Assembly: GCA_032718475.1 (NCBI GenBank)
Contig: JAUCBJ010000091.1
Span: 6,095-70,094, forward strand
From: Nemertoderma westbladi
Taxonomy: Eukaryota > Animalia > Xenacoelomorpha
Length of the DNA: 64,000 bases
Reading direction: 5' to 3'
A program made the translations under genes and the position numbers. Under the pieces are notes generated by a model. The model was not told where the DNA came from. It saw nothing but the letters and a program-made list of their open reading frames with translations, and ran no database searches. Positions 3,672 through 38,068 of the stretch are shown here, piece by piece (positions within the stretch are counted from its first letter, which is position 1; every line of letters starts with the position of its first letter).

Positions 3672-3804
3672 ATTGCCTTTTCCACCTCCCCCTATTGCTT
3701 TCCCCACCTCCCCCCTATTGCCTTTTCCACCCCCCCCCCCCCCCCCCCATTGCCTTTTCCACCTCCCCTATTGCATTTTCCACCCCCCCCCCCCTCCCCT
3801 ATTG
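3672..3804. repeat. Short block of the TATTGCCTTTTCCACCTCCCCC satellite
   Basis: About 5-6 degenerate units, separated from the main array by about 280 bp of unique sequence. Confidence 0.85.
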
Positions 3805-4081
3805 TAGGGATACCAAGAACTCGCCCCACTATGTGGCTCGCCCCAGCAGTGTAGTCATACCATGGATTCGCCTTACTACGTGGCTCGCCCCAGAACACAG
3901 ACATTACTTTCAGACATTAATCCGCTCAGTACTGTAGCACGTAGCCTACTTATGCACCTTGTCTGCATGATACCAGTACAGCACTGCAGTCTCTTGGTAT
4001 TATATGTAGCACTGGTCGGTCAGATCTATTTCGGCATTTCCGCTCATCCCGCCCGGTCCCCTCATATCGCATATCCTTACA

Positions 4082-6077: not shown

Positions 6078-6796
6078 ACTTTGCTCACCTTAAATATTGT
6101 ACCAAACAGCAGTGGTAAGATTCCGGGGTAACCATGTGTATTCATATAAACTTTGATTTTAGAAGGTTTGTAGTACCGGTAGACGTTGGCATTTCTGATG
6201 TACAGTATAATACAGGGGTGGGATGCCCGATATACGATGCCCAAATACCAGAAATTAAACGAAATACTGTTACAATTATAATTATACTATGACTTGGTAT
6301 ATAATATTCTCATATTGGCTTCCGACACACACTCACACTGACACCTACACGGACAGACTTGGAAAACGGCCATAGTATAATAATTTATTTAACTGACGAC
6401 ATGCCAACTTTAGGGCGTTCATATTTACTTAATTGGATAATGGTAAATAGCCTGATTTGTTTTATACAGGGTACCTAGCAACGCCAACTGCCAACAGCTG
6501 GATTAAATAGCAGTTGCCCTTAAAACAACTAGAGTCACTATTTCGGAAGCCCTTAAAACAACTAGAGGCACTATCCGGTAACACAGGGCCAGTGACCGAA
6601 CAAACAAGCAGCAGTTAAATTGACTAACACTGTGGGGCAAGCCACGAAAGTGAGCGTGCTTAGAATACGGGTACCAATCTCAACCTCTCGTCTGTCTAAC
6701 GTCTGCCTGTCGTTGGTTAGTCGCTCCGTCTACTCTTTGAATGCTAGTACAGTACAGTAACTCAGCGAATCTTTGATGGAATTATACCAAACGTAG

Positions 6797-7973
6797 TGTA
6801 AAAGCTTTTGCGTAATTAACCGGTTATTTTCCCGTAAAGTACTCTGTAGTTGGTTTACCAGGCATAAAAAGGCCGTGTCCTTACTGTACTGGTGTTTTAG
6901 AGGACATAAAAGTCATTTCTTCTGTATTTGTACTTTAGAGGACATAATCCGCAATCTCGTGACGCAATAAGCTAGATACTCTTGAAAACAGTGTCGCTAC
7001 CATGACGACGGCTAACAGCTGATATTGCCACGTCGACATTTCTTTGTTTCTTTGTTCTCTCGTTGTTCGGTCGACCAATCAGAGCGTTTTTTGTCTCTGT
7101 GTTGGAGGTGGATACAGAAACTCAGTAGTTCAGTGTTATGTTTTTGCCCAGAGCCTAAGAACACCGGCTTTTGGCACCTCCGTGTTTCAGTCTTTAGCTT
7201 AACATTAGTAGGCTTAATTATAGAGTGTATATCTGTTATCATACCAAAACTCAGTTATCTCAGTTAATAATCATAACATATCAAAACAAACCGCATCATT
7301 CATACCTTAACTTTACTGCTTTTACTGTCGGTTATTCATTATATTTGTTGATGAAATATTATATCGGAATACTGATCAATAGTCAGACACCCAACCTTCT
7401 TGATATACTAAAGGTTAGAGAGACCGGTTACAGATAAACGATTGCGACCTATGTTAAGTGGTTTGAAGTGAATCTAATGCTATTTCATAGGCCCGACATA
7501 AATTGTATGTTGCTCTCTTTATACGTGACCAAATTTAGTGAAGGTCGGCAGATTAGTGTGCAGTATTGTGCAGCATTGTGTATGATTGTAACTGATAACA
7601 AAGCATCTCCTAAAGAATGCGCCATATACATAACTCTATAGCCTTTTTGTTGTGTCTAGTTTAAGTCATAACTCTGTTTACATATTTAGAGCGCCACGTC
7701 CTAAAGGAACTGTTAATATTTCCCGAAAGTGAATAATATTTGTCAGAGATTATATATTACGATCAGTCGAATAATACGGTAGGCTTACACCATCAATCAT
7801 TAAGCTTCCGAATTCAGTCTCCCGGGTATATCCAGCGGGTGAATGATTGCGCATAGACTGGCTTCGGCTAATGTAGTGTATCAAATACTCGTCATAGGCT
7901 AAAGACTATATATCATCTAAAAGACATCCTAATTTGGCAGGTTAAACTGTCAAAGGTCTTAAAAGCGCAAACA
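6797..7973 (+). repeat. 5' LTR of outer element (1177 bp)
   Basis: TGTAAAAGC...GCGCAAACA. Same length as 36892-38068, with three substitutions noticed by eye. Confidence 0.96.
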
Positions 7974-7984
7974 ATAACAGATAT
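7974..7984 (+). promoter_or_regulatory. Non-tRNA primer-binding site ATAACAGATAT, complementary to LTR 7229-7239
   Basis: Abuts the LTR terminal CA. Exact reverse complement of ATATCTGTTAT at 7229-7239 (and 37324-37334). No TGG at the LTR boundary. Confidence 0.75.
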
Positions 7985-8272
7985 TGCTTCTGGATTGCGG
8001 CGTAAGCAATCAAGTCTAAAGTACCGGTACCGGTCGAACGGTAACCTGTACTGCTGTAACCAGTAGGCCTGACTGCCTGATCATCCGAACCGGTACTTAC
8101 AGTACAGGTACAGCAGTATTATTCGATTGTGGTATTGTATACCGGTAGGCTGTTTAAGAGATTAGGGACTGTACACCCCTTGTTTCTTTTGGGAGCTTAC
8201 TTATTTCTGTCAGTTTTATTTATTTGTAGGCCAGTATTGAGCAGAAGGCGTGTAAGCCTGCTCAGATTGTAC

Positions 8273-8850
8273 AGATAATTTGTAGGCTTGACTGTTGGCT
8301 AACTGTTGTTAAGTCTGAACAGATTGCAGTGTGTGTAGAGCATCTGTCCGATAAAGTGCTAGTTAGGAAAGTAGGGGCTTCAAGTGCTGTGAGGTAAACC
8401 CCCTGTGAAAGAATAAGTCGTACTACTGGGTTAGAATGCATACTAACTAATCATTTCGGAGTCTGCATATACTGTAGTGTATTTGGGCTTGATAGTAGTC
8501 TGCCATCGTTTGGTCTGTACTTTGTTTGTGTAGTCTGTACGGGTAGCGTATAATTTTATTTAGATAATTTGTAGGCTGGATAGTTGTTTGGCTGTTGTTG
8601 GGTTTGAGGAAATTTCGGTGTGTGTAGAGCATCTGTCCGATAAAGTGCTAAGTTAGGAAAGTAGGGGCTTCAAGTGCTGTGAGGTAAACCCCCTGTGAAA
8701 GAATAAGTCGTACTACTGGGTTAGAACGCATACTAACTAATCATTTCGGAGTCTGCATATACCGTAGTTTGTTTAGGCTTGATAGTAGTCTGTCAGTATT
8801 TGGTCTGCATTTTGTTTGAATAGTCTGTACGCGTAGCGTAATATTTATTA
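8273..8850 (+). repeat. Two tandem copies of an approx. 289-bp unit in the 5' leader of the outer element
   Basis: Units start AGATAATTTGTAGGCT at 8273 and 8562. A homologous pair lies at 18646 and 18933 in the inner element. Confidence 0.9.
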
Positions 8851-10188
8851 TTCAGAGTTTATGCGATTATTCGCAACATTCATTCCCCAAGTTTATTCCT
8901 ACAGTAATTGTGTTTGTTATACATACCGTTATAGTTAAACTAACCCCGGTACTACATCAGGGCTGCTCGGCGTAGGTAAAGACTGGAGATTTTATGCTTT
9001 GGTCACTCCGGCAGATACCGTGGTTCTTTTAGCTGTTCAAGTATTTTTAACTACCGATTATTTGTTGTACAAGTACTTGTACCTAATTTAGGGTTTAGTG
9101 TACAGTACTTTCCGAAGGTGATTAGTGTGTAGGCAGTGTATTTGTGTTGTAAAGTGGTTAATAGGCACGTTGGTTCTGGTAGACCGCGGTAATTAATCTC
9201 TAGGTAGGAACACTCCGTGATACATAACGTAGTACCTATAGCGATACGGTTATAGGTCGTCAGGCGGTGGTATTTTCCTATCTGGACAACGCAGTATATT
9301 TACTACTACTTATTATTTTCAAATACCGTAGTAACCTGTCCGTTGTAATAACCAGATATTCTAACCCTTTGTTAGGCTGGTTAGTAGACTTCTTGTAAAA
9401 ATACCCTAAAAAATTTGTATTTGTGTATTTGTAATTAAATTTTTGTGTTTATTTAGAGATTGTAATCTCTACCCGAATTGTACGTAACTTGTAGTATTAA
9501 GTAACTTAGGTAAATTAGAATTATTTGTTTTAGTGTCTAACAAGTAGCACTCCACTGAGAGCGCACAGCTTATGTGTAGTGACTCCCCCAGAAATAATAA
9601 CATTTATTTCAAACATTGACAAAAACCCATTTCAACGGGTATATATATATTATAAATCAACTCAAACGATTTATAAATAGTAGGCCTGCCATACAACAAT
9701 TAGGTCTCAATATCAGTTGGACTACTGCTTAAATAACAGTAATAAAGTAAGTTAAAGTAACCAAGTAACCCTTAAAATTCAGAAATTCAATTATTTAAAA
9801 TAATTGATATACCGGTATTTACAATAGGCTTACTATCTTTATTTTTATAAATATAGGCTGAAATTATACCGGTATTCTGTAATTAATTCTAGTCTGTAAT
9901 TGTACTTGTATTTTCACATTATAAGTGTAAGCTGTATACCGGTATTCAAGATAGGCCTATTATATATATAAACTTAGGCTGAAATAATACCGGTATTCTG
10001 CAATTAATTCTAGTTACTAATAATACTTATATATACTATAAGCATACCGGTATTCTAATATTATATATATATCACGCTACACTGAGTAGCAGTATCGGTA
10101 ATTAATTACTAGGTTAGCAGTTAATGCTGAATTACTAGACTTGCTTAGACTGTAATATAGCAGTAGGCATTCAACTGTGTAAACAAAC

Positions 10189-13100
10189 ATGTCTGATACT
10201 AAGCAGAACCTGTCAGACAGTTTATTAGATGCAACTATCTGCGACTCAGATAAGGGTGTAGAACCGTCTACACCTAAGTTCAGTTCACCTCCCACTGTGA
10301 GGAAGGTCATCCCTCCAGTAGTAATAACAGAACCTAGGCTGGTCCAACATCGTAGGTCTATCATAGGCACTCGAGCTCAGGTCAAACGGGACCAAGAAGC
10401 AGCGGAACAGCAACAACCCACGAGCCAAGAACTTATTTCTCAGCGGCCCGACAGCTCCAGTAGTGAGGATCTTGTAGAGCTGACACCCGAGCGCGGAGCA
10501 AAGATGACGGATGCGGTTTATTCGGATCCCCTTCTCATCCTGCCTGCAGCCGTACTCACTAGGATATTGATCGCGGTGGAAGAACACCAGATCGATTGGG
10601 CGAGAAGTCAGCAATCAACTAAAGATAGTTATGCGGGATACACAAAGGAAGAACTGAAATCTATTGTCGAGTCGCAATGGAACTTCCCCGGACCCGGACT
10701 CCCGTTTGATTTATCAGAAGCTGCCTGGGAAGACATACACCGGATGGGAGTAGCCAAAGAAACCATCGATCCAGCTGTGTGGAAGAGGTCCGCAGCCGGA
10801 TACGCACAGGGATTCTTCAGCTCTATGGAGCGACTAAAATAACAACTGTTTCAACAACCACAAGGACCTCAAGAGCAGGGACAACTGCTTTATCAAGTTA
10901 GAGAAAGAATTCTGCGAATCAAGCTAATCTTATCGGCCTTTGAAGAGGCTTCTAAAAGAAGACAAGACACGTCGTTGCAAGTTGCCGTAAAGACTTGGTT
11001 TCAGCGGGTGAGTCTCCAGGTTCAAGGAACGGCTCAGTGGAAAGCTCAGCTAGAGGAGCGCTCAACCCATGGAGAATCAACAGACGCTACTTTTTCCCAA
11101 GTGGAAAGTGAAGCGACGGCAGAGAACCCGCATAAGAGGGATGCCATTGATATCTATCTGTCAGACTATCAACGTTTCTTAGGTGATGAAGAGTTGAGGA
11201 GAAGGTTGGATGGACTTAACCCTAATAGTGAAGGAGCACAGCGTGTGCTGGATGCCATCGACGTGGATAGGTTAGCGGCGAACCAAGCTAAATTCGATGA
11301 ACAACTCCGCATCGCTAGAGTCCAAGAAGAACAGGTGAAGAAAAAACGTATAGAAGACAGAAAGAAAGCAACAGTAGCAGCTGCGGAAGCGGAAAGGAAA
11401 GCAGCCGAAGAGGAAAGTAAAGCAGCCGAAATGGAAAGAAAAGCGGCAGTGGCAGCGGCAGCGGCAGCGGCAGAGGCAGAAGCGAAAAGAAAAGCAGCTG
11501 AAATGGAAAGAAAAGTGGCAATGGCAGCGGCAGAAGCAGAGCGGATAGCGGCTGAAGAGATCGCCCAATTAGAATTGGAAAATATTCAGGAGAATCAAGA
11601 CTGCATAAATAAACAGTTAACAGCTAGTAATATGCAGATGATAAATCGATCTACTCCCAAAAGACAGGGATATACATCATCTGAGGAAGGCGATACCACC
11701 GATACTGAAGGCAAAGGAAATAGATCTCACCTAAGCAGACGTAAAAGAACATCCCACCGTCAGAAATTGCCTGATTTGCCTCCAGCTGTTAGAAGGCAAC
11801 TAAATAACACCAACTTGGGTAGTACAGAACCCACAGACCAAATAATTACAATAGAAAGACTCCCTACTATAGTAGATGAGCCTGAAATAATTAGGCCTGT
11901 TCTCGAAGCCACCCTTTCAGTGGTAGAGACACCTGTACTCCCTGAACCTACCTCTAAATTCCCTTTGCACAGTACCAAGCTACCTGTGCCCAGCAGAACA
12001 GCCCATGAGACAGTTCATGCCCTGGACCCCGAGCGAAATATTCATGATTTGTCGCCCGTTGTCCCTCGTCCGCCCGCTACAACGTTGGCGAATCCCGCTT
12101 CGGCGGTCGAATGGGTGGATGAGAGACGACGGGGGATGGATCTCCTGCTCGGACAGATGCAGGAGACTGTTCAGCAATTCAAGGGCACAGTAAGGGAAAG
12201 TAGGTTAGAGTTGCAAGAAGTGCAGCAAAGTATCGCGCTAGAACGCGATAAATTAGTAAATACACAAAAGGGTATACCACCACCCCCTGTAACAATGTGT
12301 CAACCTGTTAGGTCTGAAGTATCTCATGCGCAAGGTGTGGACCCTACACGCATCTATACTGCTAGCGAAGTAGAAACTCCTATAGTGAACCCTATTAAGG
12401 GTAATTATAGACCTGTTGATAATGATATTCCCTATAGACCGGATCATAATCCGAGAAATTTATATACCGATAACTCGATATTAAATAACACGATGGCCCA
12501 AGAAAGTTTTACGCGTCAAATGGCTAGAACCGAAGCCCGGCAAGCGGTAAAGGTGGGAGAGATCGTCAAGTTCAATGGAGATGAGATGAAATGGTTACCT
12601 TTTAATGAATATTACAAAGATAACATACAGAACTCTGTACTATCTAATGGAGAGAAACTTAGATTCCTCATCGAGTGCTTGGAAGGATCTCCCAAGTTAA
12701 TGGCGTTAAAGTTTATTGGACATCCAGATGGATTAAGACAAGTTTGGGATACACTAAACATCAGGTATGGTAATAGGAATAACATAGCTGGGTATTTGTA
12801 TGCAAAGTTGGTAGCGCCCCGAAAGTTTATTAGCAGCGGGATTATAGAGTTTTCCGATGAGATTCAGGAGATCTGCAGACAATTAGATTGGCTAGGTAAG
12901 TCTCATGAGTATCAGAGTGCTATGGTTATTAGAGCAGTGGCTTCTACTTTACCGAAGGGTGGAGTAGGTACACGCTGGGATAAGAAAGTGTTATATATGA
13001 TGGAACAACAACGACGAGACCCTACCATGGCTGATCTCATGTCATTCCTAGATGGAGAAGTGAAATTACAGCTCCTAAAACTGTCCAGAGAGAAGACCCC

Positions 13101-16100
13101 GGAAAACAAGGTAAGTGAAAAACCCGTCTCTAGGAGAAAGGTAACACCGGTGTGTTATACAGACGACGGCGAAAACCAGACTTCTCAAGGAGAAGATAGC
13201 GGGAAAGACACTGACAGATCTTATTATGTCAATAAAATGCCTAAAGATCAGGTAAGTAAATTCAAGTCTCGAACTAATGACAGGAGAGAACAGGTAAGAA
13301 AAACTCCTCCTACGTCTCCCAAGAGAATTCAGGTGAGAAAGCCCGAAGAAAAAACAAGTGTGCACAATGTTACGCAAAATAAGGTAAGTAACATCAAACC
13401 GAAATGTGCGCTATGTGATGGGACCCATCGCTTGAATACGTGTGATGAATTCCTAAAGAAATCATTAACTGAGAGACGTGAAGTCATGTGGGATAAGCGG
13501 TTGTGTTATAATTGCCTCAGACAAGGACACCAACGGCGAACCTGTTACTCTGACACAAGATGTGCCAAGTGCGGTGCGAAACATCATGTCTTGTTGCACA
13601 CTGAATTCGGCGAAATAGTCCGAGTCAGGTAAGTGATTCCAAATTACATGTCCAATTCAGTGATGTGAATGACACTGATCAATCTGAGATGGAAGGATTC
13701 TATACGGACGAGTTCTCCGACGAAAACGAATCCTATTACATGATAAATACCACAGTGTATTGAGCACTCACGTATGAAAAGGATACGGACAGCGACCTTA
13801 CCCTAGCTACTTCTGATCAACAACCATTTTGGAAAGCGCCAACTTCCAATGTAGGGATTAGAGAATTTCCTGTGGTACAGGTAAGGGTCCACGGACCAAA
13901 AAGGAATTATGTAGTGAACGCCCTCCTTGACTCCGGTAGTACAGGAACATTCATCGACAAAGAGCTAGCCGAAGACATATTTGCTGGACAACCCAAGTTC
14001 CGAACTAAGCTAAACATGTCAGGAATTATGCAGGTTTGGAAATCTACAGTAACAGCGGATTATTATGTAGGTGCGTTGTCCACCCCCCAGGATGAACTAG
14101 GAGAACATAGCATAAGGTCAGTGAAAATGGTGGCTATAAAGAACTTCGCTACTACTCAAGCAGACCTTTATAATTGGGACGAGGATGAGAGCATCCAACA
14201 TCTTAAGATACCTCGATTCCAGACTGATTATCCTGGAGTGCAAATACTCATCGGCCAAAACGCGCATGAGGCGCTCGAGACACTGGAGAAACGGCCTGCT
14301 CAACCGCAGCCACTACAAACCTATGCGGTAAGAACTAGAGTAGGTTGGTACTTTACTGGCCCTTCCCGTAGAACTCTCATGGAAAGATTACCGAAAGATC
14401 AGGTATATCAAGTGCGAGAATGGGAAGTTGAGAACAGTGAGTTCGACGATCCAACTGAGGGAACTCCATACTCCTCAGACAACGACGATATACATCAACT
14501 TTTCGATGAGGAGAATGCCATCGATCTCCTTAAGGAAAGCGAGACTTGGCAAAATCAAGTGAACTTATGTCAACTCCTTCTCCCATCCGAGCGAGACGAC
14601 TATAACGACGAGCTTAATGACGTCATTGAACGTTATAATGCCAAGACTCGGGATGAACACGCCGTAAGATTCTTTACTCAAGAGGTTGTAGAGCCCAACT
14701 CCTACGATAAGGCCCTATCGGTGGAGGAAGAAAGAGCCAAGCAGATCCAAGCGACAACTACTCGTTTTCTTAAAGATCAAGGTAGATATGAGATCGGTCT
14801 TCCTTTCCGAAAGCGAGAACCAAAGTTCATTAACAACAGACCTTTGGCGGAGAAAAGAATTGCTCAACTACATCGACGCCTTACGGCAAATTCTTCAGCT
14901 AAAGAAATGTATCAAACGCAGTTGAAGAAGTTTATTAGTAAGGGATATGCGGAGCTAGTACCGGAAGAAACACCTATAACTGAGAGAACGTATTATTTAA
15001 CTCACCATTACGTTCCCAAACCCGGTAAACCCCATGAAGTACGAGTGGTGTTTGACGGTTCCGCCCTTTATATGGGCCAATCTCTTAATTCTGAATTGTT
15101 ACCCGGACCCAACTTACTAGAATCCTTGTTCGGAATACTATTAAGATTAAGACAATATTCCATTGCTTTCGCCTCAGATATAGAAGGCATGTTCTTACAA
15201 GTCAAAGCGCTGGATAGGGATCGAGATAGCCTACGATTTTTGTGGTGGCCTGAAGGAGACCTCAACAAGAAACCGGTGGAGTACTGGATGACCATCCAAG
15301 CCTTTGGGATAATCTCGAGCCCTTCAAACGCCTGTTCCGTGGTGCGCACCACTGCGGATGACAACCGAGACGCCTTCTCTAAAGAGGTGATCGACAATAT
15401 CAAACGAAACATCTACATGGACGATAATCTGAAGTCCCTTCCATCAGTCGAAGAAGCCACTGCGGTCGCTGAAGGAACGGTAGAATGCTTAAAGAAAGGT
15501 GGATTTCGATTAACTAAATTCACTAGCAACTCCCGTGAGTTTCTGGAGTCGATCCCGGTAGAAGATCGAGGAGCAAAAGACCTAGATCTAATAAAGGATG
15601 ATCTCCCAGAAACTAAGACCCTTGGTTTGAAATGGGACACAGAAAGAGATATCCTGTTTTTCCAATTAAAACAGCGAGATAATCCAGTTCGGACTAAACG
15701 GATTTGTTTAAGTATCCTGAGCACTTATTTCGATCCATTGGGATTTATTAGCCCAGTTATATTGATTGCTCGGAGTTTAGTACAACAAATGTGGCTTGAA
15801 AACCACTCATGGGACGATCCACTTAAGGGAGAATTATTAAAGAAGTGGATGAAATGGGAAGATTCTCTACCAGCCATCGAAAACTTTATAATTTCCCGTT
15901 CATATTTTGGTCATGTTCTCCCTACGTATTCATATCAACTCCATGTGTTTGGAGACGCCAGCGATATGGGAATAGGTATAGTAGCCTACCTAAGGGTGGA
16001 AACTCCGGACGGAATCAAAGTCGCCTTGATTACCTCTAAGGCATTGATAAACAACAAGTTGAAGGTTCCTCGAGCGGAGTTAAAAGCGGCTCTATACGCT

Positions 16101-17111: not shown

Positions 17112-18378
17112 TGTAAAAGCCTTTGCTGAATTGCCCCGTTATTTTTATTATCTTTTACATTAAAATACTCTGTAGTTGATTTAATAAGTGTAAGAGACCG
17201 TATTATTGCTGTATCGGTGTTTTTAGAGGATCTAAGACCTATTTCCTCCGTATGTGTACTGTGAAAGGCATATTTTATGATTCTATGGCAATTCGTGATG
17301 CAAAAGGGTGATAGCTACTCTTGAACAGTAGTTACTATGACTACGGTTAACAGCTGACATTCATACGTGTTGATTTCCTTTGTTCTACGGCGTCTCTCAG
17401 TTCAGTCAGCCAATGAGAGCGTTTTTGTGGCTCCTTGTACAGAAAATTTCCGAGAAATGACGCAATGCCTATGTGCAGTGTTTACATTCAGTCTTGAGCC
17501 AAATAAAGAACGGCTTGGAAGTATTTTTTGTGCTGTACTGCTTTTTAGTCGTACACTAGTAGGTTTAATTATAAAGGGCATATATCCTTTAACTGTAAAT
17601 ATCTCACTGCTGCAATTTAACATACCTAACGAATACTGCTGACTGATGATCATACATGCTGACTGCTGAAACATTGCAAACTCATAACAATCAGTGTTCA
17701 GTAGTTATTTTATACTGCTATTTACCGTCAGTTCTTCATAATATGGTTGATGAATTATTATATTTGGAATAACGATAAACAACCCCGAAACCCAATGTTC
17801 TTGATATACCGAAGGTAAGAGAGAAGGGTTACAGATAAACGATTGTGACTTATGTTAAAGTGGTTTGAAGTGAATCTAATGTTATTTGATAGACCCTACA
17901 TGAGTCAGCCTGTGTTCCTTTTATATGTGACTAAAATCAGTGAAGACTGGCAGATTAGTGTGCAGTATTGTGCAGCATTGTGTATGAGTGAGTCTGTTAA
18001 AGAAGCATTCCTAAAGAATGCGCCATATATGTGAATTATAATTAAGCCATATCGTTGTGAGTAGTTTAAGTCATAACTCTGTTTATATAGATAAAGCGCC
18101 ATGTCCTAAAGGAACTGTTAATATTACCGAAGGTGAATAATATTGTCAGAGATTATATAGTACTGTCAGTCGAATAATACATTAGGCTTACATAGCAATA
18201 AAAATTAAACCGTCGAACCCAATCTCCCGGGAATATCCAGCGGGTGAATGGTCGCGCACGGATTGGTTTCGACTAGTGTAGTGAATCAAATACTTGTCAT
18301 AGACTAAAAGCAGATTTAATATCTAGAAGACATCTTAATTTGGTGGGTTAAACTGCCAAAGGTCTGAAAGCGCGAACA
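17112..18378 (+). repeat. 5' LTR of inner element (1267 bp)
   Basis: TGTAAAAGCC...GCGCGAACA. Homologous to, but clearly diverged from, the outer LTR. Confidence 0.93.
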
Positions 18379-18390
18379 TTAAAGGATATA
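18379..18390 (+). promoter_or_regulatory. Non-tRNA primer-binding site TTAAAGGATATA, complementary to LTR 17581-17592
   Basis: Abuts the LTR terminal CA. Exact reverse complement of TATATCCTTTAA at 17581-17592 (and 28777-28788). Confidence 0.75.
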
Positions 18391-18645
18391 GCTTCTTTAT
18401 TGCAGTAAGCAATAAAGTCGAAAGTACCGGTCGACCGGTAACCAGTAGGCCTGACTGCCTGATCATCCGGACCGGTACCTACAGCAGTATTATTCGATTT
18501 TGATTGTTATATACCAGTAGGCCTTAATAATTAATCAGGGACGGCCGCCCTGATTTTTTATTGAGATTTTACTTATTTCTGTCAAGATTTATTTGTTTGT
18601 AGGCCAGTATTGAACAGAAGGCGTGTAAACCTGATCAGATTGTAC

Positions 18646-19220: not shown

Positions 19221-20533
19221 AGAGTTTATGCGATTATTCGCAACATTCAAGTCCCTAAGTTTGTTCCTACAGTAATTGTGTTTGTTATACATACCGTTAT
19301 AGTTAAATTAACCCCGGTACTACACGGGCTGCTCGGCGTAGGTAAAGACTGGTGATTTTGTGCATCGGTCACTCCAGCAGATGCCGTGGTTCTTTTAGCT
19401 GTTCAAGTATATTTAATTACTGATTATCTGTTATACAAGTACTCGTACCTAATTTAGGGTTTAGTGTATGGTACTTTCCGAAGTAATCATTGTAGGCATT
19501 ATATTTGTGTTGTAAAGTGGTTGATAGGCACATTCGATTAGCTCTATTAACTTCTAGGTAGGAACACTCCGTGATACATAACGTAGAACCTATAGCGATA
19601 CGGCTATAGGTCGTCAGGAGGTGGTATTTTCCTATCTAGACAACGCAGTGTATTTACTACTACTTATTATTTCAAATACCGTAGTACCCTGTCCGCTGTA
19701 ATAACCGGTTTTCTAACCCTTTGTTAGGCTGGTTTGTAGACTTCTTGTAAAATTACCCTAAAAATTCGTATTTGTGTTTTTGTAAGATTTTGTGTTTATT
19801 TAGAGATTGTAATCTCAACCCAAATTGTACGTAATTTGTAGTATTAAGTAACTTAGGTAAATTAGTATTATTTGTTTTAGTGTCCTGTACGTAACACTTC
19901 ACTGAAAGCGCACCGCTTTGTGTAGTGATTACCCCCAGAAATAATAACATTTATTTCAAACATTGACAAAACCCATTAAAACGGGTATATATATATTATA
20001 AATCAAATCTAACGATTTATAAATCGTAGGCCTACCATACAACCATTAGGCCTCAATATCAGTTGGATTACTGCTCAAATAACGGTAATAAAGTAAGTAA
20101 AGTAACCAAGTAACCCTAAAGTAACAGAAATTCAATTATTTGAAATAATTGATATACCGGTATTTACGATAGGCCTATTATCTTTATTTCTATAAATCTA
20201 GGCTGAAATTATACCGGTACTTGTAATTAATTCTATTTCAGAATTATATATCCTACAAACTGTAAGCTGTATACCGGTATTCAGATAGGCCTATTATATA
20301 TTTATATATATTTGTGCTAAAATTATACCGGTATTCTGTGATAAACCTAGTCTGTAATAATACTTATATAGTTATATATACTATAAGTATACCGGTATTC
20401 TAATATATTATATATATCACGCTATACTGAGTAGCAGTACCGGTAATTAATTACTAGACTAGCAGGTAATACTGAGTTACTAGACTTACTCAGACTGTAA
20501 TACAGCAGTAGACATTCAACGGTATACATAGTC

Positions 20534-23500
20534 ATGTCTGATACTAAGCAGAACCTGTCAGACAGTTTATTAGATGTAACTATCTGCGACTCAGATAGAG
20601 ACGTACAAACGTCTGGTCGTAAATCCAGTTCACCTCCCACTGTGAGGAAGGTCATCCCTCCAGTAGTAATAACAGAACCTAGGCTAGTCCAACATCGTAG
20701 GTCTATCATAGGCACTCGAGCTCAGGTCAAGCGGGACCAAAAGGCAGCGGAACAGCAACAACCCGCTAGTCAAGAACTTATTCCTCAGCGGCCCAGCAGC
20801 TCCAGTAGTGATGATACTGTAGAGCTGACACCCGAGAGCGGAGCAGAGATGACGGATGCGGTTTATACGGATCCCCTTCTCATCCTTCCTGCAGCCGTGC
20901 TTGCCGGGTTATTGATCGCGGTGGAAGAACACCAGATCGATTGGGCGAGGAGTCAACGGACAACTAGAGATAGCTACGCGGGCTACACTAGTGAAGAACT
21001 GAAGTCTATTGTCGAGTCGCAATGGAACTTCCCCGGACCCGGACTCCCGTTTGATTTATCCGAAGCGGCCTGGGAAGACATACACCGGATGGGAGTAGCC
21101 CAGGAAACCATCGATCCAGCTGTGTGGAAGAGGTCCGCAGCCGGATACGCACAGGGATTCTTCAGCTCTATGGAGCGAATAGAAAAGCAACTTTTTCAAC
21201 AACCTCAAGGACCTCAAGAGCAGGGATCGCTGCTTTATCAAGTTAGAGAAAGAGTTCTGCGGATTAGGCTAATCTTATCCGCCTTTGAGGAGGCTTCTAA
21301 ACGAAAGCAAGACACGTCGTTGCAAGTTGCCATAAAGACTTGGTTTCAAAGGGTGAGTCACCAGGTTCAAGGAGCAGCTCAGTGGAAAGCTCAATTGGAG
21401 GAGCGCTCAACCCATGGAGAATCAACGGACGCTATTTCTTCCCAAGTGGAAAGTGAAGCGACGGCAGAGAAACCGCATAAGAAGGATGCCATTGATATCT
21501 ATCTGTCAGACTATCAGCGTTTTGTGGGAGATGAAGAGTTGAGGAGAAGGCTAGAGGGACTTAGCCCTAATAGCGAAGGAGCCAAACTTGTGTTAGATGC
21601 GATTGATGTGGATAGGTTAGCGGCGAACCAAGCTAAATTCGATGAACAACTCCGCATCGCTAGAGAAAGGGAAGAACAAGTAAGGAAAAAGCGTATAGAA
21701 GACAGAAAGATAGCAGCAGTGGCAGAGGCAGAAAGAAAAGCGGCAGCGGCAGAGGCAAAAGCGGCAGCGGCAGCGGCAAAAGCGGCAGCAGTGGCGGAAG
21801 CAGAACGAACAGTGGCGGAAGCAGAACGAAAAGCGGCAGCGGAAGAGGCAAAAGCGGCAGCAGCAGAGGCAAAAGCGGCAGCAGTGGCGGAAGTAGAACG
21901 AAAAGCGGCTGAAGAGATCATCCAACTGGAGTTGGAAAATCTTCAAGAGAAACAAGACGACTTCAGTAAACAGTTAGCAGCTAGTAATATGCAGATGATG
22001 AGTCGATCTACTCCCAAAAGACAAGGGTATACCTCATCTGAGGAAGGCGATACCACCGACACTGAAGGCGGAAGAAATCGATCTCGCCTAAGCAGACGTA
22101 AAAGAACATTCCACCGGCAGAAATTGCCTGATTTGCCTCCAGCTGTTAGAAGGCAACTAAATAACACTAACTTAGGTAGTACAGAGCCCACAGACCAAAT
22201 AATTAAAATAGAAAGACTCCCTACTATAGTAGATGAGCCTGAAATAATTAGGCCTGTTCTTGAAATCACCCCTTCGGTGATAGACACACCTGTGCTCCCT
22301 GAAGCTACTTCTAAATTCCCTCTACATAGCACTAAGCTACCTGTGCCCAGTAGAACTGCCCAGGCGACAGTTCAGGTCCTGGACCCCGAGCGAAATATTC
22401 ATAATTTGTCGCCCGTTGTCCCTCGTCCGCCCGCTACAACGTTGGCGACTCCCGCTTCGGCGGTCGAATGGGTGGACGAGGGACGGCGGGGGATGGATAT
22501 CCTGCTCGGACAGTTGCAGGAGACTGTCCAGCAATTCAAGGGCACAGTAAGGGAAAGTAGACTAGAGTTGCAAGAAGTGCAGCAAAGTATCGCGCTAGAA
22601 CGCGATAAATTAGTAAATACCCAAAAGGGTATACCACCACCCTCTGTAACAATGTGTCAACCTGTTAGGTCTGAAGTATTGCATGCGCAAGGTGTGGAGC
22701 CTACACGCATATATACTGCTAGCGAAGTAGAAACTCCTATAGTGAACCCTATTAAGGGTAATTATAGACCTGTTGATAATGACATTCCCTATAGACCTGA
22801 TCATAATCCGAGAAATTTATATACCGATGACTCGATATTAAATAACACGATGGCCCAAGAAAGTTTTACGCGTCAAATGGCTAGAACCGAAGCCCGGCAA
22901 GCGGTGAAGGTGGGAGAGATAGTCAAATTCAATGGAGATGAGATGAAATGGTTACCTTTTAATGAATATTACAAAGATAACATACAGAACTCTGTACTAT
23001 CTAATGGAGAAAAACTTAGATACCTCATCGAGTGCTTGGAAGGATCTCCCAAGTTAATGGCGTTAAAGTTTATTGGACATCCAGACGGATTAAGACAAGT
23101 TTGGGACACGCTAAACATCAGGTATGGTAATAGGACTAACATAGCTAGGTATTTATATGCGAAATTAATGGCGCCCCGAAAGTTTCTTAGCAGCGGGATT
23201 ATAGAGTTTTCCGATGAGATTCAGGAGATCTGTAGACAACTAGATTGGTTAGGTAAGTCTCATGAATACCAGAATTCTATGGTTGTAGGAGCCTTAGCAT
23301 CTACTTTGCCCAAGGGTGGAGTAGGTACACGCTGGGACAAGAAGGTGTTATATATGATGGAACAACAACGACGAGACCCTACCATAGCTGATCTCATGTC
23401 ATTCTTAGATGGAGAAGTGAAATTACAGCTCCTAAGGCAGTCCAGAGAGAAGACACTGGAAAACAAGGTAAGTGAGAAACCCGTTTCTAGGAGAAGGGTA

Positions 23501-25498
23501 ATACCAGTATGTTATACCGACGACGGTGAAAGCCAAACTTCTCAAGGAGAGGACAGCGGGAAAGACACTGACAGATCTTATGTCAATAAAATGCCTAAAG
23601 ATCAGGTAAGTAAATCCAAGTCTCGACCCAATGACAGAAGGGAACCGGTACAAAAAACCCCTCCTACGTCTCCTAAAAGAATTCAGGTGAGAAAGCCCGA
23701 GGAAAGAACAAGTGTGCACCACATAGCACAGGTTAAAGTAAGTAACATCAAGCCCAAATGTGTGCTGTGCGACGGGCCCCACCGTTTAAATGCGTGTGAT
23801 AAATTCCTGAGGAAATCACTCGAGGATAGACGTGAAGTCATGTGGGATAAGCGGTTGTGTTATAATTGCCTCAGACGAGGACACCAACGGCGAACCTGTA
23901 ACTCCGACGCAAGGTGTGCAAAGTGCGGCGCAAATCATCATATCTTGTTGCACACGGAATTCGAACGAAACAGCCCGAGTCAGGTAAGTGAGTCCGAACT
24001 ACATGTCCAATTCAGTGATGTGAACGACACTGATCAATCTGAGATGGAAGGATTCTATACGGACGAGTTCTCCGACCAAAACGAATCCTGTTACCTAATA
24101 AACACCACCGCAGTGTATCGAGCACTCGTACATGAGAAAGACACAGACAGCGACCTTACCTTAACTACTTCCGATCAACAACCATCTTGGAAAGCGCCAA
24201 CTTTCAATATAGGAATCCGAGAGTTTCCTGTGGTGCAGGTAAGGGTGCACGGACCTAAACGGAGTTATGTAGTGAACGCCCTCCTGGACTCCGGCAGCAC
24301 AGGAACATTCATCGATAAAGAGCTAGCCGAAGATATATTTGCTGGACAACCCAAGTTCCAAACTAAGCTCAACATGTCAGGCATTATGCAAGTTTGGAAA
24401 TCTACAATAACAGCTGATTATTATGTAGGCGCGTTGTCCACCCCACAAGACGAACTAGGAGAACATAGCATAAGGTCAGTGAAAATGGTGGCTATAAAGA
24501 ACTTCGCTACTACTCAAGCAGACCTTTATAATTGGGACGAGGATGAGAGCATCCAACATCTTAACATACCTCGATTCCAGACTGATTATCCTGGAGTGCA
24601 AATACTCATCGGCCAAAACGCGCATGAGGCGCTGGAGACATTAGAGAAACGGCCTGCTCAACCGCAGCCACTACAGACCTATGCGGTAAGAACTAGAGTA
24701 GGTTGGTACCTTACTGGACCTTCCGGTAGAACGCTCAGGGAAAGACTGCTTCAAGATCGCGTCTGCCAGATGAGTGAATGGGAAGATGATACTAGTGAGG
24801 GAGACGACCCAACTGAGGGAACACCACACTCCTCAGATAATGACAATCTTAGCTCCAATGTAGATCAATGGAGATATTGCCCCAAGAAGTTTTATCCAAC
24901 GGACATCGCTTCCAGAGGAGCAACTCCTCAAGAACTGACAGATACTATAGACCGGTTAGGTGAACCCGACTTCCTGAGTAAGGAGAATGAATGGCCTCCC
25001 CATCTTACTCCGACTGAGATTAGACCAGCCAAGGGAGCGGAGAAAGTCGAACCTGAAACCCGGACGGGTGGATCGGAGTTATTTGAACCCGGGATAGATC
25101 TGTCGGTATTACATGTTGCCAGGGACGACGCCGTGGATCTGGGCCTCCCCTCCGCGAGTGGATCCTGCATGAAGATCAGAGAGAGCGATTGGAGCTCTGG
25201 AACATCAGACGTCTCGCAGGGACTCTCACCTCTCCTGCAGAGAGCGACGGACCACTATAGCTCCTGGAATCGGCTTTGTGACGCCGTCATATACTTTGAG
25301 CGATGTTTCTATCGTCACTATTCCAGGACGAAGAGGAAACCTGGAATTGTATTCAGGATACAGCGACTCAATCACCCAGTCGGTCGTTTGTGTTTATCGG
25401 AAGGGAATGGAGGACTCTCCGGAAACTGTGGAAGGCAAGATTCTCTTCCCACGACCACCTCCCTAATCCTTCAAACATCTAGGGACTCCATAACGTAA
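20534..25498 (+). CDS. Intact Gag-protease polyprotein of the inner element, with in-frame remnants of RNase H and integrase C-termini (1654 aa)
   Basis: Same Gag, knuckle and ALLDSGS motifs as the outer element. Jumps from the post-protease linker to DQWRYCP..DIASRG near 24850, and from HYSSWNRL..HYS to KPGIVF..RLC near 25335. No YMDD and no DDE core. Confidence 0.92.
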   Translation: MSDTKQNLSDSLLDVTICDSDRDVQTSGRKSSSPPTVRKVIPPVVITEPRLVQHRRSIIGTRAQVKRDQKAAEQQQPASQELIPQRPSSSSSDDTVELTPESGAEMTDAVYTDPLLILPAAVLAGLLIAVEEHQIDWARSQRTTRDSYAGYTSEELKSIVESQWNFPGPGLPFDLSEAAWEDIHRMGVAQETIDPAVWKRSAAGYAQGFFSSMERIEKQLFQQPQGPQEQGSLLYQVRERVLRIRLILSAFEEASKRKQDTSLQVAIKTWFQRVSHQVQGAAQWKAQLEERSTHGESTDAISSQVESEATAEKPHKKDAIDIYLSDYQRFVGDEELRRRLEGLSPNSEGAKLVLDAIDVDRLAANQAKFDEQLRIAREREEQVRKKRIEDRKIAAVAEAERKAAAAEAKAAAAAAKAAAVAEAERTVAEAERKAAAEEAKAAAAEAKAAAVAEVERKAAEEIIQLELENLQEKQDDFSKQLAASNMQMMSRSTPKRQGYTSSEEGDTTDTEGGRNRSRLSRRKRTFHRQKLPDLPPAVRRQLNNTNLGSTEPTDQIIKIERLPTIVDEPEIIRPVLEITPSVIDTPVLPEATSKFPLHSTKLPVPSRTAQATVQVLDPERNIHNLSPVVPRPPATTLATPASAVEWVDEGRRGMDILLGQLQETVQQFKGTVRESRLELQEVQQSIALERDKLVNTQKGIPPPSVTMCQPVRSEVLHAQGVEPTRIYTASEVETPIVNPIKGNYRPVDNDIPYRPDHNPRNLYTDDSILNNTMAQESFTRQMARTEARQAVKVGEIVKFNGDEMKWLPFNEYYKDNIQNSVLSNGEKLRYLIECLEGSPKLMALKFIGHPDGLRQVWDTLNIRYGNRTNIARYLYAKLMAPRKFLSSGIIEFSDEIQEICRQLDWLGKSHEYQNSMVVGALASTLPKGGVGTRWDKKVLYMMEQQRRDPTIADLMSFLDGEVKLQLLRQSREKTLENKVSEKPVSRRRVIPVCYTDDGESQTSQGEDSGKDTDRSYVNKMPKDQVSKSKSRPNDRREPVQKTPPTSPKRIQVRKPEERTSVHHIAQVKVSNIKPKCVLCDGPHRLNACDKFLRKSLEDRREVMWDKRLCYNCLRRGHQRRTCNSDARCAKCGANHHILLHTEFERNSPSQVSESELHVQFSDVNDTDQSEMEGFYTDEFSDQNESCYLINTTAVYRALVHEKDTDSDLTLTTSDQQPSWKAPTFNIGIREFPVVQVRVHGPKRSYVVNALLDSGSTGTFIDKELAEDIFAGQPKFQTKLNMSGIMQVWKSTITADYYVGALSTPQDELGEHSIRSVKMVAIKNFATTQADLYNWDEDESIQHLNIPRFQTDYPGVQILIGQNAHEALETLEKRPAQPQPLQTYAVRTRVGWYLTGPSGRTLRERLLQDRVCQMSEWEDDTSEGDDPTEGTPHSSDNDNLSSNVDQWRYCPKKFYPTDIASRGATPQELTDTIDRLGEPDFLSKENEWPPHLTPTEIRPAKGAEKVEPETRTGGSELFEPGIDLSVLHVARDDAVDLGLPSASGSCMKIRESDWSSGTSDVSQGLSPLLQRATDHYSSWNRLCDAVIYFERCFYRHYSRTKRKPGIVFRIQRLNHPVGRLCLSEGNGGLSGNCGRQDSLPTTTSLILQTSRDSIT

Positions 25499-28307: not shown

Positions 28308-28954
28308 TGTAAAAGCCTTTGCTGAATTGCCCCGTTATTTTTATTATCTTTTACATTAAAATACTCTGTAGTTGATTTAATAAGTGTAAGAGACCGTATT
28401 ATTGCTGTATCGGTGTTTTTAGAGGATCTAAGACCTATTTCCTCCGTATGTGTACTGTGAAAGGCATATTTTATGATTCTATGGCAATTCGTGATGCAAA
28501 AGGGTGATAGCTACTCTTGAACAGTAGTTACTATGACTACGGTTAACAGCTGACATTCATACGTGTTGATTTCCTTTGTTCTACGGCGTCTCTCAGTTCA
28601 GTCAGCCAATGAGAGCGTTTTTGTGGCTCCTTGTACAGAAAATTTCCGAGAAATGACGCAATGCCTATGTGCAGTGTTTACATTCAGTCTTGAGCCAAAG
28701 AAAGAACGGCTTGGAAGTATTTTTTGTGCTGTACTGCTTTTTAGTCGTACACTAGTAGGTTTAATTATAAAGGGCATATATCCTTTAACTGTAAATATCT
28801 CACTGCTGCAATTTAACATACCTAACGACTACTGCTGACTGATGATCATACATGCTGACTGCTGAAACATTGCAAACTCATAACAATCAGTGTTCAGTAG
28901 TTATTTTATACTGCTATTTACCGTCAGTTCTTCATAATATGGTTGATGAATTAT
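28308..28954 (+). repeat. Truncated 3' LTR of inner element (647 of 1267 bp)
   Basis: Matches 17112-17758 with two substitutions noticed, then switches abruptly to pol sequence. Confidence 0.92.
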
Positions 28955-29726
28955 GGTAGATACTCCAGACTGGTTAGGTGGACCCGACTTCCTCTACAAA
29001 GAAGAAGAAGAATGGCCTCCTCATCTTACTACAGCAGAAATTAGACAGGCCAAGGGAGCGGAGAAAGTCAAGCCTAAAACTCAGGCGAGTAAATCGAAGT
29101 TATTCAAACCCACAGTAGATCTGTCTGTCCTACATACTTCCGGAGACGACGCTTTGGATCAGAAACCCACAGCCACAAATAAACCCGTTGTGGAAATCCG
29201 TGATAAGGATTGGAAATCTGGCATACCAGACGTCTCGCAAGGACTCTCACCTCTTCTGCAGAGAGCGATACATCACTACAGTTCCTGGAATCGGCTCTGT
29301 AAGGCCGTTACATATTTAAAGAGATGTTTTCACCATCACTACTCTGGGATGAAAACAAAGGGTGATACCGCTCCAATCACATCAGTGCAGGTCCATGTTA
29401 TTAAAGATCTTCCCAAACATAAGATACCCGACAGGTTTCTGAAGGAGAAGATCAGTTATCAGGAGCATGAAGAAACCAACAAACAGATGCTGAGACTCTT
29501 ACAATGCTATGAAGATTCCGATAAGTATTTCCTGTTGTTGAGAAATCCACAGATGCGCTTAAGGGATCGTTTCTCTAGCACAAGGATAGATGGGTTGATA
29601 CGTGTTGGAGGAAGGTTAACGAATGCCCCATTATCCTTTGATACTAAGTTCCCCATACTCATTAGAAATCTTGAAATACAAGTCAAGATGATTGTAGATG
29701 TTCACAGCAAACTTTATCATGCTGGT
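28954..29726 (+). repeat. 773-bp direct duplication of outer pol 16339-17111
   Basis: TGGTAGATACTCC...CATGCTGGT occurs on both sides of the inner element, with identical translation. Confidence 0.93.
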
Positions 29727-30914
29727 AGAGAACGAGTTCTTAGCGAAATTCGAACTCGCTATTATTTTTATAAACCCCGTAGAGCTCTGAACCAAGTTCT
29801 TAGGAACTGTATACCCTGTAGGAAAGCATTCAGTAGGCCTTTAACACAGAGAGAGGCAAAATTACCTAGGGAACGAGTAAGCTTTTATGAACCACCCTTT
29901 ACTAATACCGGTGTGGATTTATTTGGCCCTATTGAAGTATATCGTGCTAGGACTATAGTCAAGAGATGGTGTGTAATCTTTGTTTGTATGACTTGTAGAG
30001 CCATCCATCTCGATATGGTGAACGATTTATCTACCAACAGCTTTCTATTAAGCTTACGACGACAGATCGCTTGCTTTGGCACTAGTAACACGATGAGATC
30101 TGATAAGGGAACAAACTTCATTGGTGCCAACAATGAAATCAAAGCTTACGTCAAAGATTGGAACCAAAGACAGGTGGACGACCAACTACGAGTAACAGCG
30201 TCTAGTTGGACCTTCAACGCCGCCGACGCCCCTTGGTGGGGAGGAAGTTGGGAGAGATTAATAAGAAGTGTGAAGACAGCATTTCATTTTATAGTGCCTT
30301 GCCGCGCTTATCTCACCGACGAACTTTTGCGGACGTTAATGGAAGAAATCGCCGCCTATCTCAACGAGAGACCGCTTATGCCAGTCTCATCGAGTCCCGA
30401 TTCCCTGGAAGCGCTAACACCCGCGCACTTCCTACTGAAGAAACCTGTAGCCATGCTCCCACAATCGGAAATCACAGATGGAGACAAATACTGCCGACAA
30501 ACTTGGCAACTCATGCAGTTGTTATCCCGTCGTTTCACTGACCATTTCGAAAAACATTATCTGCCCACGCTACAACTTCGAACTAAGTGGTTTGCGCAGC
30601 AAGAAAACGTCAGCGCTGGAGACATGGTTCTTATTGTGGATGTAGATCTTCCACGTAAGCAGTGGCAGACAGGTCGTATAATCGAGACCCACATCTCGGA
30701 TGACGGTTTGGTGCGATCGGTAGAACTCGTCGTCATGCGACGTAACTTCAAGAAACCGGGAATTGTCTTCGAGACGCAGCAGCTCAATCGCCCAGTTGGT
30801 CGCTTATGTTTACTGGAAAGAGACAGAGAACTCTCCGGAAACTATGGGAGACAAGATACTCTTCCCACGACCACCTCCCTAATCCAACAAACATCTAGGG
30901 ACTCCCCAACTTAA
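29727..30914 (+). pseudogene. Outer element integrase (3' part of gag-pol; within ORF 28953-30914)
   Basis: H..LYHAG..CIPC zinc finger, PFTNTGVDLFGP, RAIHLD, SDKGTNF, PWWGGSWERLIRSVK, LNERPL, LTPAHFL, DDGLVRSV, RPVGRLCLL. Confidence 0.93.
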
Positions 30915-31740: not shown

Positions 31741-32554
31741 TATTTAACATTAAATAATAAAATTTACGGGAATAAATTTAAATTCAGATATTTTAATGAA
31801 TTTAATAAATTGTCATTTTAGACAATTTATAACATTCCCAAAATTCCATTAATTAATAGATCATGGGAGCGGAGATTCACTCTATTAAGTGTATTTGTGT
31901 GCGAGAATCTCCAATGTATAGTCAATAGCCGATAAAATTCATAGAATCATGTATAAAGGGGATATTGACCATTAAAGAATTACTATTAAATAGCATCCCA
32001 GATCTGTATGCATGAGAATTACCCTAATTCTACCGCTAGCTTTCCATAATGTCACCATGGCAACAACCATGCTAGAATTAGAAGTGAGTTAAAAGAACAA
32101 TAGAAGGCATGCCCCATTGAATAGCATAGGGAATAAATAGCGCATTGCTAGTATCCAAGGATACATAATAAATACAGTGACATTCTGGAAGGTACTGACT
32201 AACGGACAAATGGCCCGAATGTGTGCAGTTTGTTGCAGTTGTGTTGAATTTGTGCGTTTGTAGGTGAATGTTACTACTAAGGTGTGTTTACAGTAGCGAG
32301 TCGCAATTGTGAAAGTAACCCTAACTCTCCAAGAAGAACCTGCAGTACATCTAAGCCTTTGGGACGGACAGTGAAGTGACTTGTGCCGGTTATCGTTGTC
32401 GTTGTGTAGCTACATCGTTGGCGAAAGCACAGCGACGACGGTACATCGGCGCTGAGGATCTTACACTGTCCGGGGGCAAAAGAGGGGTAGGCAGCGACGC
32501 CCGCTAGCCTAATATATATAAACTCATTATAATATTGATAAACTCATAGCAGAT

Positions 32555-36813: not shown

Positions 36814-36891
36814 CTGTTTAGAGTATTTTTATAATTTAGAAACTGTGATTTGTTATATTTTATAGACTTAAATCCCATTTTCTGGGAGCGG

Positions 36892-38068
36892 TGTAAAAGC
36901 TTTTGCGTAATTAACCGGTTATTTTCCCGTAAAGTACTCTGTAGTTGGTTTACCAGGCATAAAAAGGCCGTGTCCTTACTGTACTGGTGTTTTAGAGGAC
37001 ATAAAAGTCATTTCTTCTGTATTTGTACTTTAGAGGACATAATCCGCAATCTCGTGACGCAATAAGCTAGATACTCTTGAAAACAGTGTCGCTACCATGA
37101 CGACGGCTAACAGCTGATATTGCCACGTCGACATTTCTTTGTTTCTTTGTTCTCTCGTTGTTCGGTCGACCAATCAGAGCGTTTTTTGTCTCTGTGTTGG
37201 AGGGGGATACAGAAACTCAGTAGTTCAGTGTTATGTTTTTGCCCAGAGCCTAAGAACACCGGCTTTTCGCACCTCCGTGTTTCAGTCTTTAGCTTAACAT
37301 TAGTAGGCTTAATTATAGAGTGTATATCTGTTATCATACCAAAACTCAGTTATCTCAGTTAATAATCATAACATATCAAAACAAACCGCATCATTCATAC
37401 CTTAACTTTACTGCTTTTACTGTCGGTTATTCATTATATTTGTTGATGAAATATTATATCGGAATACTGATCAATAGTCAGACACCCAACCTTCTTGATA
37501 TACTAAAGGTTAGAGAGACCGGTTACAGATAAACGATTGCGACCTATGTTAAGTGGTTTGAAGTGAATCTAATGCTATTTCATAGGCCCGACATAAATTG
37601 TATGTTGCTCTCTTTATACGTGACCAAATTTAGTGAAGGTCGGCAGATTAGTGTGCAGTATTGTGCAGCATTGTGTATGATTGTAACTGATAACAAAGCA
37701 TCTCCTAAAGAATGCGCCATATACATAACTCTATAGCCTTTTCGTTGTGTCTAGTTTAAGTCATAACTCTGTTTACATATTTAGAGCGCCACGTCCTAAA
37801 GGAACTGTTAATATTTCCCGAAAGTGAATAATATTTGTCAGAGATTATATATTACGATCAGTCGAATAATACGGTAGGCTTACACCATCAATCATTAAGC
37901 TTCCGAATTCAGTCTCCCGGGTATATCCAGCGGGTGAATGATTGCGCATAGACTGGCTTCGGCTAATGTAGTGTATCAAATACTCGTCATAGGCTAAAGA
38001 CTATATATCATCTAAAAGACATCCTAATTTGGCAGGTTAAACTGTCAAAGGTCTTAAAAGCGCAAACA
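36892..38068 (+). repeat. 3' LTR of outer element (1177 bp)
   Basis: Near-identical to 6797-7973; followed by the TSD CGTAG. Confidence 0.96.

Follow-up and report, generated by a model that had tools for sequence, protein, structure and literature searches.

The ICTV describes the replication of the Belpaoviridae as poorly understood and primed by host tRNA, gives genomes of 4.2-10 kb and an 18-nt primer-binding site (PBS) to which either tRNA-Arg or tRNA-Gly anneals (PMC8742986), in agreement with the premise of a first-pass annotation of the DNA studied here that Bel/Pao elements are tRNA-primed. Self-priming has been described for the Tf1/sushi group and predicted for Tcn1 and for the copia TAR lineage (PMC6317226, PMC4600332). 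In Tf1, the RNA's first 11 bases anneal to the PBS, RNase H makes its cut after base 11 and before base 12 (PMC7175516), and about half of the Tf1 cDNA has the PBS copied as single-stranded DNA (PMC11042837). Tf1 and Tf2 of S. pombe, Tj1 of S. japonicus, Tf1/sushi elements in general and Tcn1, all of the Ty3/gypsy type, have a PBS directly after the 5' LTR that complements about 11 nt of their own LTR and no tRNA site (PMC7175516, PMC4600332, PMC6317226). Searches of openly available full texts yielded no precedent for self-priming in Bel/Pao elements, of which the first-pass annotation also knew none, one being possible in subscription papers, Repbase/GyDB or supplements; in the main texts of the Sinbad paper (PMC554778) and of a BEL/Pao survey (PMC3118150), PBS and tRNA occur zero times.

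Here we compare these systems with a Bel/Pao locus in a stretch of 64,000 nucleotides from Nemertoderma westbladi (contig JAUCBJ010000091.1), the whole of which is called the window. Its primer site resembles that of Tf1, and the signature is shared with a wider set of Bel/Pao families.

A young Bel/Pao element and its nested relative

The outer element, at 6797-38068, is a young Bel/Pao element with a relative nested inside it. The main features of the two are as follows.

6792..6796 (+), target-site duplication CGTAG, 5 bp; right copy at 38069-38073
6797..7973 (+), outer 5' LTR, 1177 bp, TG...CA
8272..8856 (+), two tandem units of ~290 bp each in the ~2.2-kb leader; inner counterpart at 18650-19207
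10183..13632 (+), outer gag with DUF1759 and two zinc knuckles, interrupted by stop codons
13764..17111 (+), protease-RT-RNase H part of outer pol with DSGS, YMDD and Peptidase_A17, split by the nested element
17112..18378 (+), inner 5' LTR, 1267 bp
20501..25498 (+), inner gag-protease ORF, 1665 aa
28308..28954 (+), inner 3' LTR, which stops after 647 bp; two differences from the 5' copy
28950..30914 (+), outer integrase part with Integrase_H2C2 and DUF5641
36884..36891 (+), polypurine-tract-like GGGAGCGG just 5' of the outer 3' LTR; inner counterpart at 28300-28307
36892..38068 (+), outer 3' LTR, 1177 bp; three differences from the 5' LTR

The Bel/Pao identity proposed in the first-pass annotation is borne out by domain matches in the outer element to DUF1759 (E 8e-11), Peptidase_A17 (E 2e-36), DUF5641 (E 4e-20) and Integrase_H2C2. 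The Pol order is PR-RT-RH-IN, with DSGS preceding YMDD. PF05380 was present in all of the best 120 of 246 homologues, and among the matches listed the nearest proteins, with 28-42% identity, are Bel/Pao polyproteins from fish and from marine invertebrates. TG...CA LTRs, a target duplication and a polypurine tract are likewise Bel/Pao traits found here. The element is thus like Belpaoviridae (Semotivirus) in its LTR-gag-pol layout, domain order, Bel/Pao-specific domains and animal host context; it is unlike them in having no recognizable tRNA site, a length of ~18.7 kb excluding the nested copy and duplication, and an extra ORF that is not env-like. We assign it to Bel/Pao because its proteins fit, although it lacks the tRNA PBS trait given by the ICTV, a trait that the present finding calls into question.

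The nested element (17112-28954) lies within outer pol and is non-autonomous, as the RT/RNase H region and integrase core are missing. Across 7.2 kb in the 5' half the two elements share ~87% identity, and their LTRs are 81% identical in the last 660 bp and 67% in the first 300 bp. An exact 773-bp duplication flanks the nested element (16339-17111 and 28954-29726) and an ordinary target duplication is absent, which may reflect a recent rearrangement that involved one copy with the insertion and one without it, or else a join made during assembly. The comparison within the family covers these two variants; a conserved 24-nt LTR word had no matches in metagenome and viral contigs, and protein scans of the viral contigs gave no further copy. 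Among the positions listed for contigs of the sequencing runs, none in the motif or PBS was variant, and no conclusion is drawn from this.

A splice-donor-like site is kept in the 3' part of both LTRs (AG|GTTAGA at 7414, AG|GTAAGA at 17815), and an acceptor-like site is present at 7659; they might give rise to a subgenomic RNA from which the extra ORF is expressed. Elsewhere in the window are a C-rich 22-nt satellite of ~91 copies (3672-6130), which ends ~700 bp before the outer element, and a broken non-LTR retrotransposon (39890-42640) with endonuclease and RT matches. The host genes Slu7 (1043-2800), XRCC4 (43360-44355) and Ist1 (62248-63588) are each a long single ORF, which suggests retrocopies or a host with few introns. 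Pairs of inverted repeats, 45-58 nt long, occur at 42583-46004, 53440-54737 and 58651-59498, the first of which brackets the XRCC4-like ORF and may mark a gene captured by a DNA transposon.

The primer-binding site pairs with the element's own LTR

The putative primer-binding sites and their LTR partners are the following.

7229..7239 (+), candidate self-primer in the outer 5' LTR, ATATCTGTTAT; second copy at 37324-37334
7974..7984 (+), putative outer primer-binding site, complementary to 7229-7239; does not start with TGG
17581..17592 (+), candidate self-primer in the inner 5' LTR, TATATCCTTTAA; second copy at 28777-28788
18379..18390 (+), putative inner primer-binding site, complementary to 17581-17592; first TGG after the LTR at 18797

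The observations on which the first-pass annotation built its case were all reproduced on recomputation. The 11 nt after the outer 5' LTR are the exact reverse complement of LTR positions 7229-7239, and 18379-18390 is the exact complement of 17581-17592; the two motifs occupy the same aligned place in the LTR, and PBS positions 1, 5 and 6 change together with their partners between outer and inner elements, giving the three covarying positions that had been claimed. Both PBSs begin at base 1 after the LTR-terminal CA, so that in each element the 3' base of the motif pairs with the base adjoining that CA. The motif occurs once per LTR (7229 and 37324; 17581 and 28777) and each PBS once in the window. 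The twelfth base pair of the inner copy may be incidental.

Among 5000 dinucleotide shuffles per LTR, a match of at least the observed length at offset 0 arose in four for the outer and one for the inner element; with offsets 0-5 allowed, the frequencies were 0.0038 and 0.0006. Four of the 9127 11-mers in the outer body have a complement in the LTR, that is, three besides the PBS, and in the inner body the PBS alone among 9917 12-mers does. The cognate duplexes have predicted energies of -10.5 and -11.6 kcal/mol, compared with -4.7 and -2.8 kcal/mol for the swapped outer/inner pairs, a loss of 6-9 kcal/mol.

A TGG near the LTR end is not conserved: the nearest in the outer element is at 7991, and it is absent from the inner element, whose first TGG is the one noted above. 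No tRNA gene was found in the 64-kb window, and an Rfam search over 6700-10300 gave a sole match at E 0.28, far below threshold.

Sites of the Tf1 type are recognized by own-LTR complementarity of at least 10 nt starting 0-5 nt past the LTR, and the two window elements show 11 and 12 nt at offset 0. The same test (at least 10 bp, 0-5 bp past the LTR) has been applied to the TAR lineage of plant Ty1/copia elements, including Houba and Osr-1 (PMC6317226), which the window elements thus resemble in this respect; TAR differs in being a copia lineage of plants, and self-priming there is a prediction only. By its primer site the window element is predicted to work like Tf1, and it is not a member of Tf1/sushi, as its Pol is not of the Ty3/gypsy type. 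It is further unlike the Tf1 group in its Bel/Pao domains and its primer-PBS distance of 735-790 nt, and a primer consisting of the first 11 nt is here only a candidate. The outer PBS begins with ATAAC as that of Tf1 does (PMC11042837), which is probably chance because the inner PBS does not.

Conservation and promoter-like words around the motif

Three further features of the outer LTR are the following.

7075..7079 (+), CCAAT-box-like word with a putative promoter role; inner copy at 17410-17414
7190..7228 (+), conserved block upstream of the motif, with YTTTAG and a TATA-like word
7240..7312 (+), hypervariable segment beginning right at the 3' edge of the motif; 39% identity between outer and inner elements

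The CCAAT word sits 164-182 nt upstream of the motif end. The TATA-like word at 7219 (inner 17570) lies just 10-11 nt upstream of the motif. The usual spacing from TATA to transcription start is about 30 nt, so a start at the motif fits poorly; the position does not fit an upstream start either. The acceptor-like YTTTAG (7190-7197, inner 17541-17548) lies ~30 nt before the motif, and a canonical donor just upstream is absent; it is possibly a trans-splice acceptor or a relic of the LTR intron found in the clade and described below.

Between outer and inner elements, the 43 bases ending at the motif (7197-7239) are 71% identical, compared with 52% and 39% in the flanks. In contigs from sequencing run X1, summed depth, which is no measure of copy number, falls from ~126,000 at 7223-7250 to 225 at 7251-7278, and run contigs diverge at 7241/7244 and rejoin at 7313/7321 with different letters. 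Together the drop in identity and the fall and divergence of the contigs indicate that conservation in the family stops at the 3' edge of the motif. As the segment that follows is hypervariable, no conserved U5 stem like that of Tf1 is evident there.

In fold predictions the PBS-motif duplex is part of the minimum-energy structure for RNA 5' ends up to ~20-30 nt upstream of the motif, and for 5' ends 70-105 nt upstream it is 2.6-6 kcal/mol off the predicted minimum. The duplex also forms with a shuffled interior (14 of 25 and 24 of 25 trials) and so is not specific; folding indicates that it is feasible, and only that. Longer pairing upstream of the motif, as well as a local hairpin, appears in both elements in different registers and was not counted.

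The signature recurs in distant Bel/Pao relatives

In 14 of the 64 parts of a metagenome contig collection, a pol-region profile retrieved 78 Bel/Pao loci (from the best 80 among 539 confirmed). Nineteen candidates with terminal repeats were examined. In eight of them the repeat did not fix an LTR end, being either an overlap of the assembly or located within the LTR or coding region, and these were excluded; the 11 two-LTR loci that were kept have 30-44% protein identity.

A site complementary to the locus's own LTR over 10-15 nt was found in eight of these 11, representing seven families (L020 and L027 are one family). For seven of the eight, the match runs across the junction of a GT-AG intron in the LTR (L001, 12 nt; L005, 15; L017, 12; L018, 11; L020, 10; L027, 10; L067, 12), the introns being 70-190 nt long with a pyrimidine tract; in L024 it is 11 nt and contiguous, the same form as in the window family. 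The match starts at the LTR end or within 4 nt of it in every case; in L017 it begins at the CA, and the terminal repeat ends 4 nt before that CA. The match of PBS and LTR that the first-pass annotation proposed to test in relatives is present in most but not all of them: L030 and L054, which have repeats without a final CA and stand outside the shuffle and cross-table tests, had no match longer than 7 nt and no junction match, and L076 carries TGGTAGCAGAGC, a tRNA-Met site (identified via PMC3587641), and is tRNA-type. In L058, a 12-nt own-LTR match at offset 6 past an LTR-like end, extended via a one-base bulge, was seen and not counted.

When each PBS was shuffled 2000 times, the observed length was reached at most five times (p no higher than 0.0025 for any site). 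A 10 x 10 cross table shows that the nine self-matching sites score 10-15 on their own LTR and at most 9 on the others, and the PBSs of different families share no sequence. A site at the position where a primer must anneal, specific to each family and always matching its own LTR, is best explained as a self-primer site.

Fifty-nine of the 78 loci were given to a blind scan, two of them too short and many of the contigs without an LTR. Splice-junction matches appeared in 9 of 57 upstream regions and 0 of 57 antisense controls, a lenient control because splice sites are strand-specific, and the scan adds L003, L008, L037 and L060. Contiguous matches lacking a proven LTR end were no more than noise (12 of 57 against 14 of 57 in controls). 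In L001, L003, L005, L008, L017, L018/L019, L020/L022/L027, L037, L060 and L064/L067, the exons on either side of a canonical GT-AG intron in the LTR join to form an exact complement to the PBS over 10-15 nt; the second exon usually gives 4-7 nt of the match, often ending AC. Such a junction primer does not appear to be described for Tf1 (PMC7175516, PMC4600332, PMC6317226). A splice-made primer was rejected for the window family, in which the motif has no internal acceptor and is followed by no donor.

In a quick RT/RNase H tree of 79 rows, built without named references (Pao, Sinbad, Dan, Flow, Tas, BEL, Suzu and Sailor are the named subgroups for placement), self-matching loci fall in several clades. 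The first-pass annotation had inferred that this lineage acquired self-priming independently, which is not supported: the same signature, in unrelated letters, is present in eight of 11 relatives across several clades, so that it is probably ancient within a part of Bel/Pao and not special to the window lineage. The window element sits on an end branch of 1.82 in no supported set, and for this reason the relatives may not share its mechanism. They also differ in primer-PBS distance, which is ~80-220 nt compared with 735-790 nt in the window elements.

A clear TATATAA was present in four of 13 relatives: 36 nt before the donor in L001, a Tf1-like placement, and 134-142 nt before the donor or primer end in L005, L024 and L067. 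Taken with the spacing of the TATA-like word in the window, the 134-142 nt in three of these four makes an internal primer at least as likely as a cap-proximal one.

Proposed mechanism of priming

Pairing, register, covariation, the missing TGG and the signature in relatives all favor tRNA-independent self-priming as the best reading, as the first-pass annotation had predicted, and self-priming of some form is, on the sequence evidence, very probable. The 5' LTR copy, released through a cut as in Tf1, appears to be the likely primer. The RNA would fold back over 735-790 nt so that the 5' LTR motif pairs with the PBS, and would then be cut after 7239 or 17592, at the 3' edge of the motif, probably by the element's RNase H as in Tf1. 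Reverse transcriptase would extend the cut end through U5, and the strong-stop DNA would transfer to the 3' copy of R, which lies beyond the motif on its downstream side. The PBS may also be rewritten when the plus strand copies the primer, which would keep the match exact; since Tf1 cDNA often carries a copied PBS, the matched changes may in part be due to primer copying rather than selection alone, and by either route they point to primer use. A primer that is the end of a longer 5' piece of RNA seems somewhat the better prospect, and one made of the first 11 nt is plausible but rather less so.

Splicing of the LTR intron would produce the primer in most relatives, the window family having the contiguous form. 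The intron persists in the DNA though the primer needs splicing, which implies a primer derived from the 5' copy, or from a different molecule, and a 3' copy that is read unspliced. We extend the 5'-copy part of this reasoning from the intron-bearing relatives to the contiguous form in the window.

The extra ORF and possible priming from the 3' LTR copy

The strongest competing account involves the following ORF.

32522..36370 (+), extra ORF of 1282 aa with a DEDD 3'-5' exonuclease-like region and C-terminal zinc knuckles

This ORF lies between pol and the 3' LTR. Language-model searches gave 0.88-0.90 to PF01612 clusters (DEDD 3'-5' exonucleases), and its sole convincing homologue among 1.84 billion representatives is P0124 (E 7e-5), which has the same two parts and itself matches PF01612 weakly (E 0.2); a second protein, P0125, was judged spurious. 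Pfam gave no match for the ORF, and no homologue at E 0.01 was found among proteins of 705-2244 aa, nor a solved structural relative. The bdelloid elements Juno and Vesta carry an ORF3 for a DEDDy exonuclease after pol that resembles it (PMC5408684); they belong to other LTR lineages, and the window ORF, at 1282 aa with zinc knuckles, has its exonuclease assignment as a lead only.

The 3' LTR copy (37324-37334) could self-prime if the 3' end of the RNA were shortened as far as the duplex, perhaps by the exonuclease-like protein. With a TATA-like word directly before it, the motif could fall in U3, which is present only at the RNA 3' end, the TATAAA at 17570 could double as a weak poly(A) signal, and the likeness of the extra ORF to 3'-5' exonucleases makes a role in trimming a 3' primer attractive, though weak. 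One of the four acidic catalytic positions that we take to be expected of a DEDD enzyme is not acidic in the two-sequence alignment, two structure predictions were of low confidence (pLDDT 32), and most of the ORF is lost from the inner element. In six of the eight self-matching two-LTR relatives, moreover, a long ORF, of gag-pol size in five of them, stops 58-275 nt short of the 3' LTR, so that there is no room for an extra gene; in L027 it ends 805 nt before. LTR introns in the relatives would be expected to vanish under priming by the 3' copy, and their retention disfavors a primer made from an RNA end near 37334, the end for which the first-pass annotation had proposed 3' RACE. We consider this route unlikely, and cleavage of the 5' copy is preferred to it.

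Other alternatives

A further account, about as unlikely or slightly more so, is that the pairing is real and selected but structural, acting in packaging, dimerization or a translation switch, with a host RNA such as an internal tRNA fragment displacing it and priming. Pairing by itself does not demonstrate priming, and half-tRNA priming is known in copia lineages (PMC6317226). The match, however, always starts no more than 4 nt from the LTR end, which is precisely the place that the end of a primer must occupy, and since the PBSs are unrelated between families, a site set by tRNA would need a different tRNA fragment each time.

It is improbable, in our estimation, that the primer acts in trans as another element-derived RNA, be it a further copy of the genome, an LTR transcript that is spliced or short, or a small RNA released from such a transcript. 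Two molecules would easily accommodate both the 735-790 nt distance and the combination in relatives of a spliced primer with an unspliced template; against this, an intramolecular duplex is thermodynamically feasible, though not specific, and Tf1 folds back within a single molecule.

Chance complementarity or an assembly artefact, for which one might cite AT-rich 11-mers, the three other outer-body 11-mers that match the LTR, unanchored contiguous 11-nt matches as common on the control strand and the odd 773-bp duplication, is very improbable and already largely refuted by offset 0 in both elements, a homologous partner site, three matched changes, presence of the motif in both LTRs of each element and recurrence in unrelated families.

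Implications

Returning to self-priming by a 5' piece of the RNA, we regard it as roughly an even chance that a large, old part of Bel/Pao works without tRNA, primed by an internal piece of 5' RNA that is mostly assembled by the spliceosome across an LTR intron, with the window family an intron-free form whose primer lies 735-790 nt away. The prediction is exact to the base, as RNA ends would fall at 7239 and 17592, and it is directly testable. If true, self-priming would be present in all three LTR superfamilies, Bel/Pao being the third, and this would account for the many marine Bel/Pao elements that have no recognizable PBS, a matter of consequence for annotation tools that use tRNA sites as a filter. 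These elements would likewise have no site of the kind used by 3' tRNA fragments to silence LTR elements (PMC7472051), and the splice-junction primers of the relatives would tie the initiation of reverse transcription to splicing in a new way.
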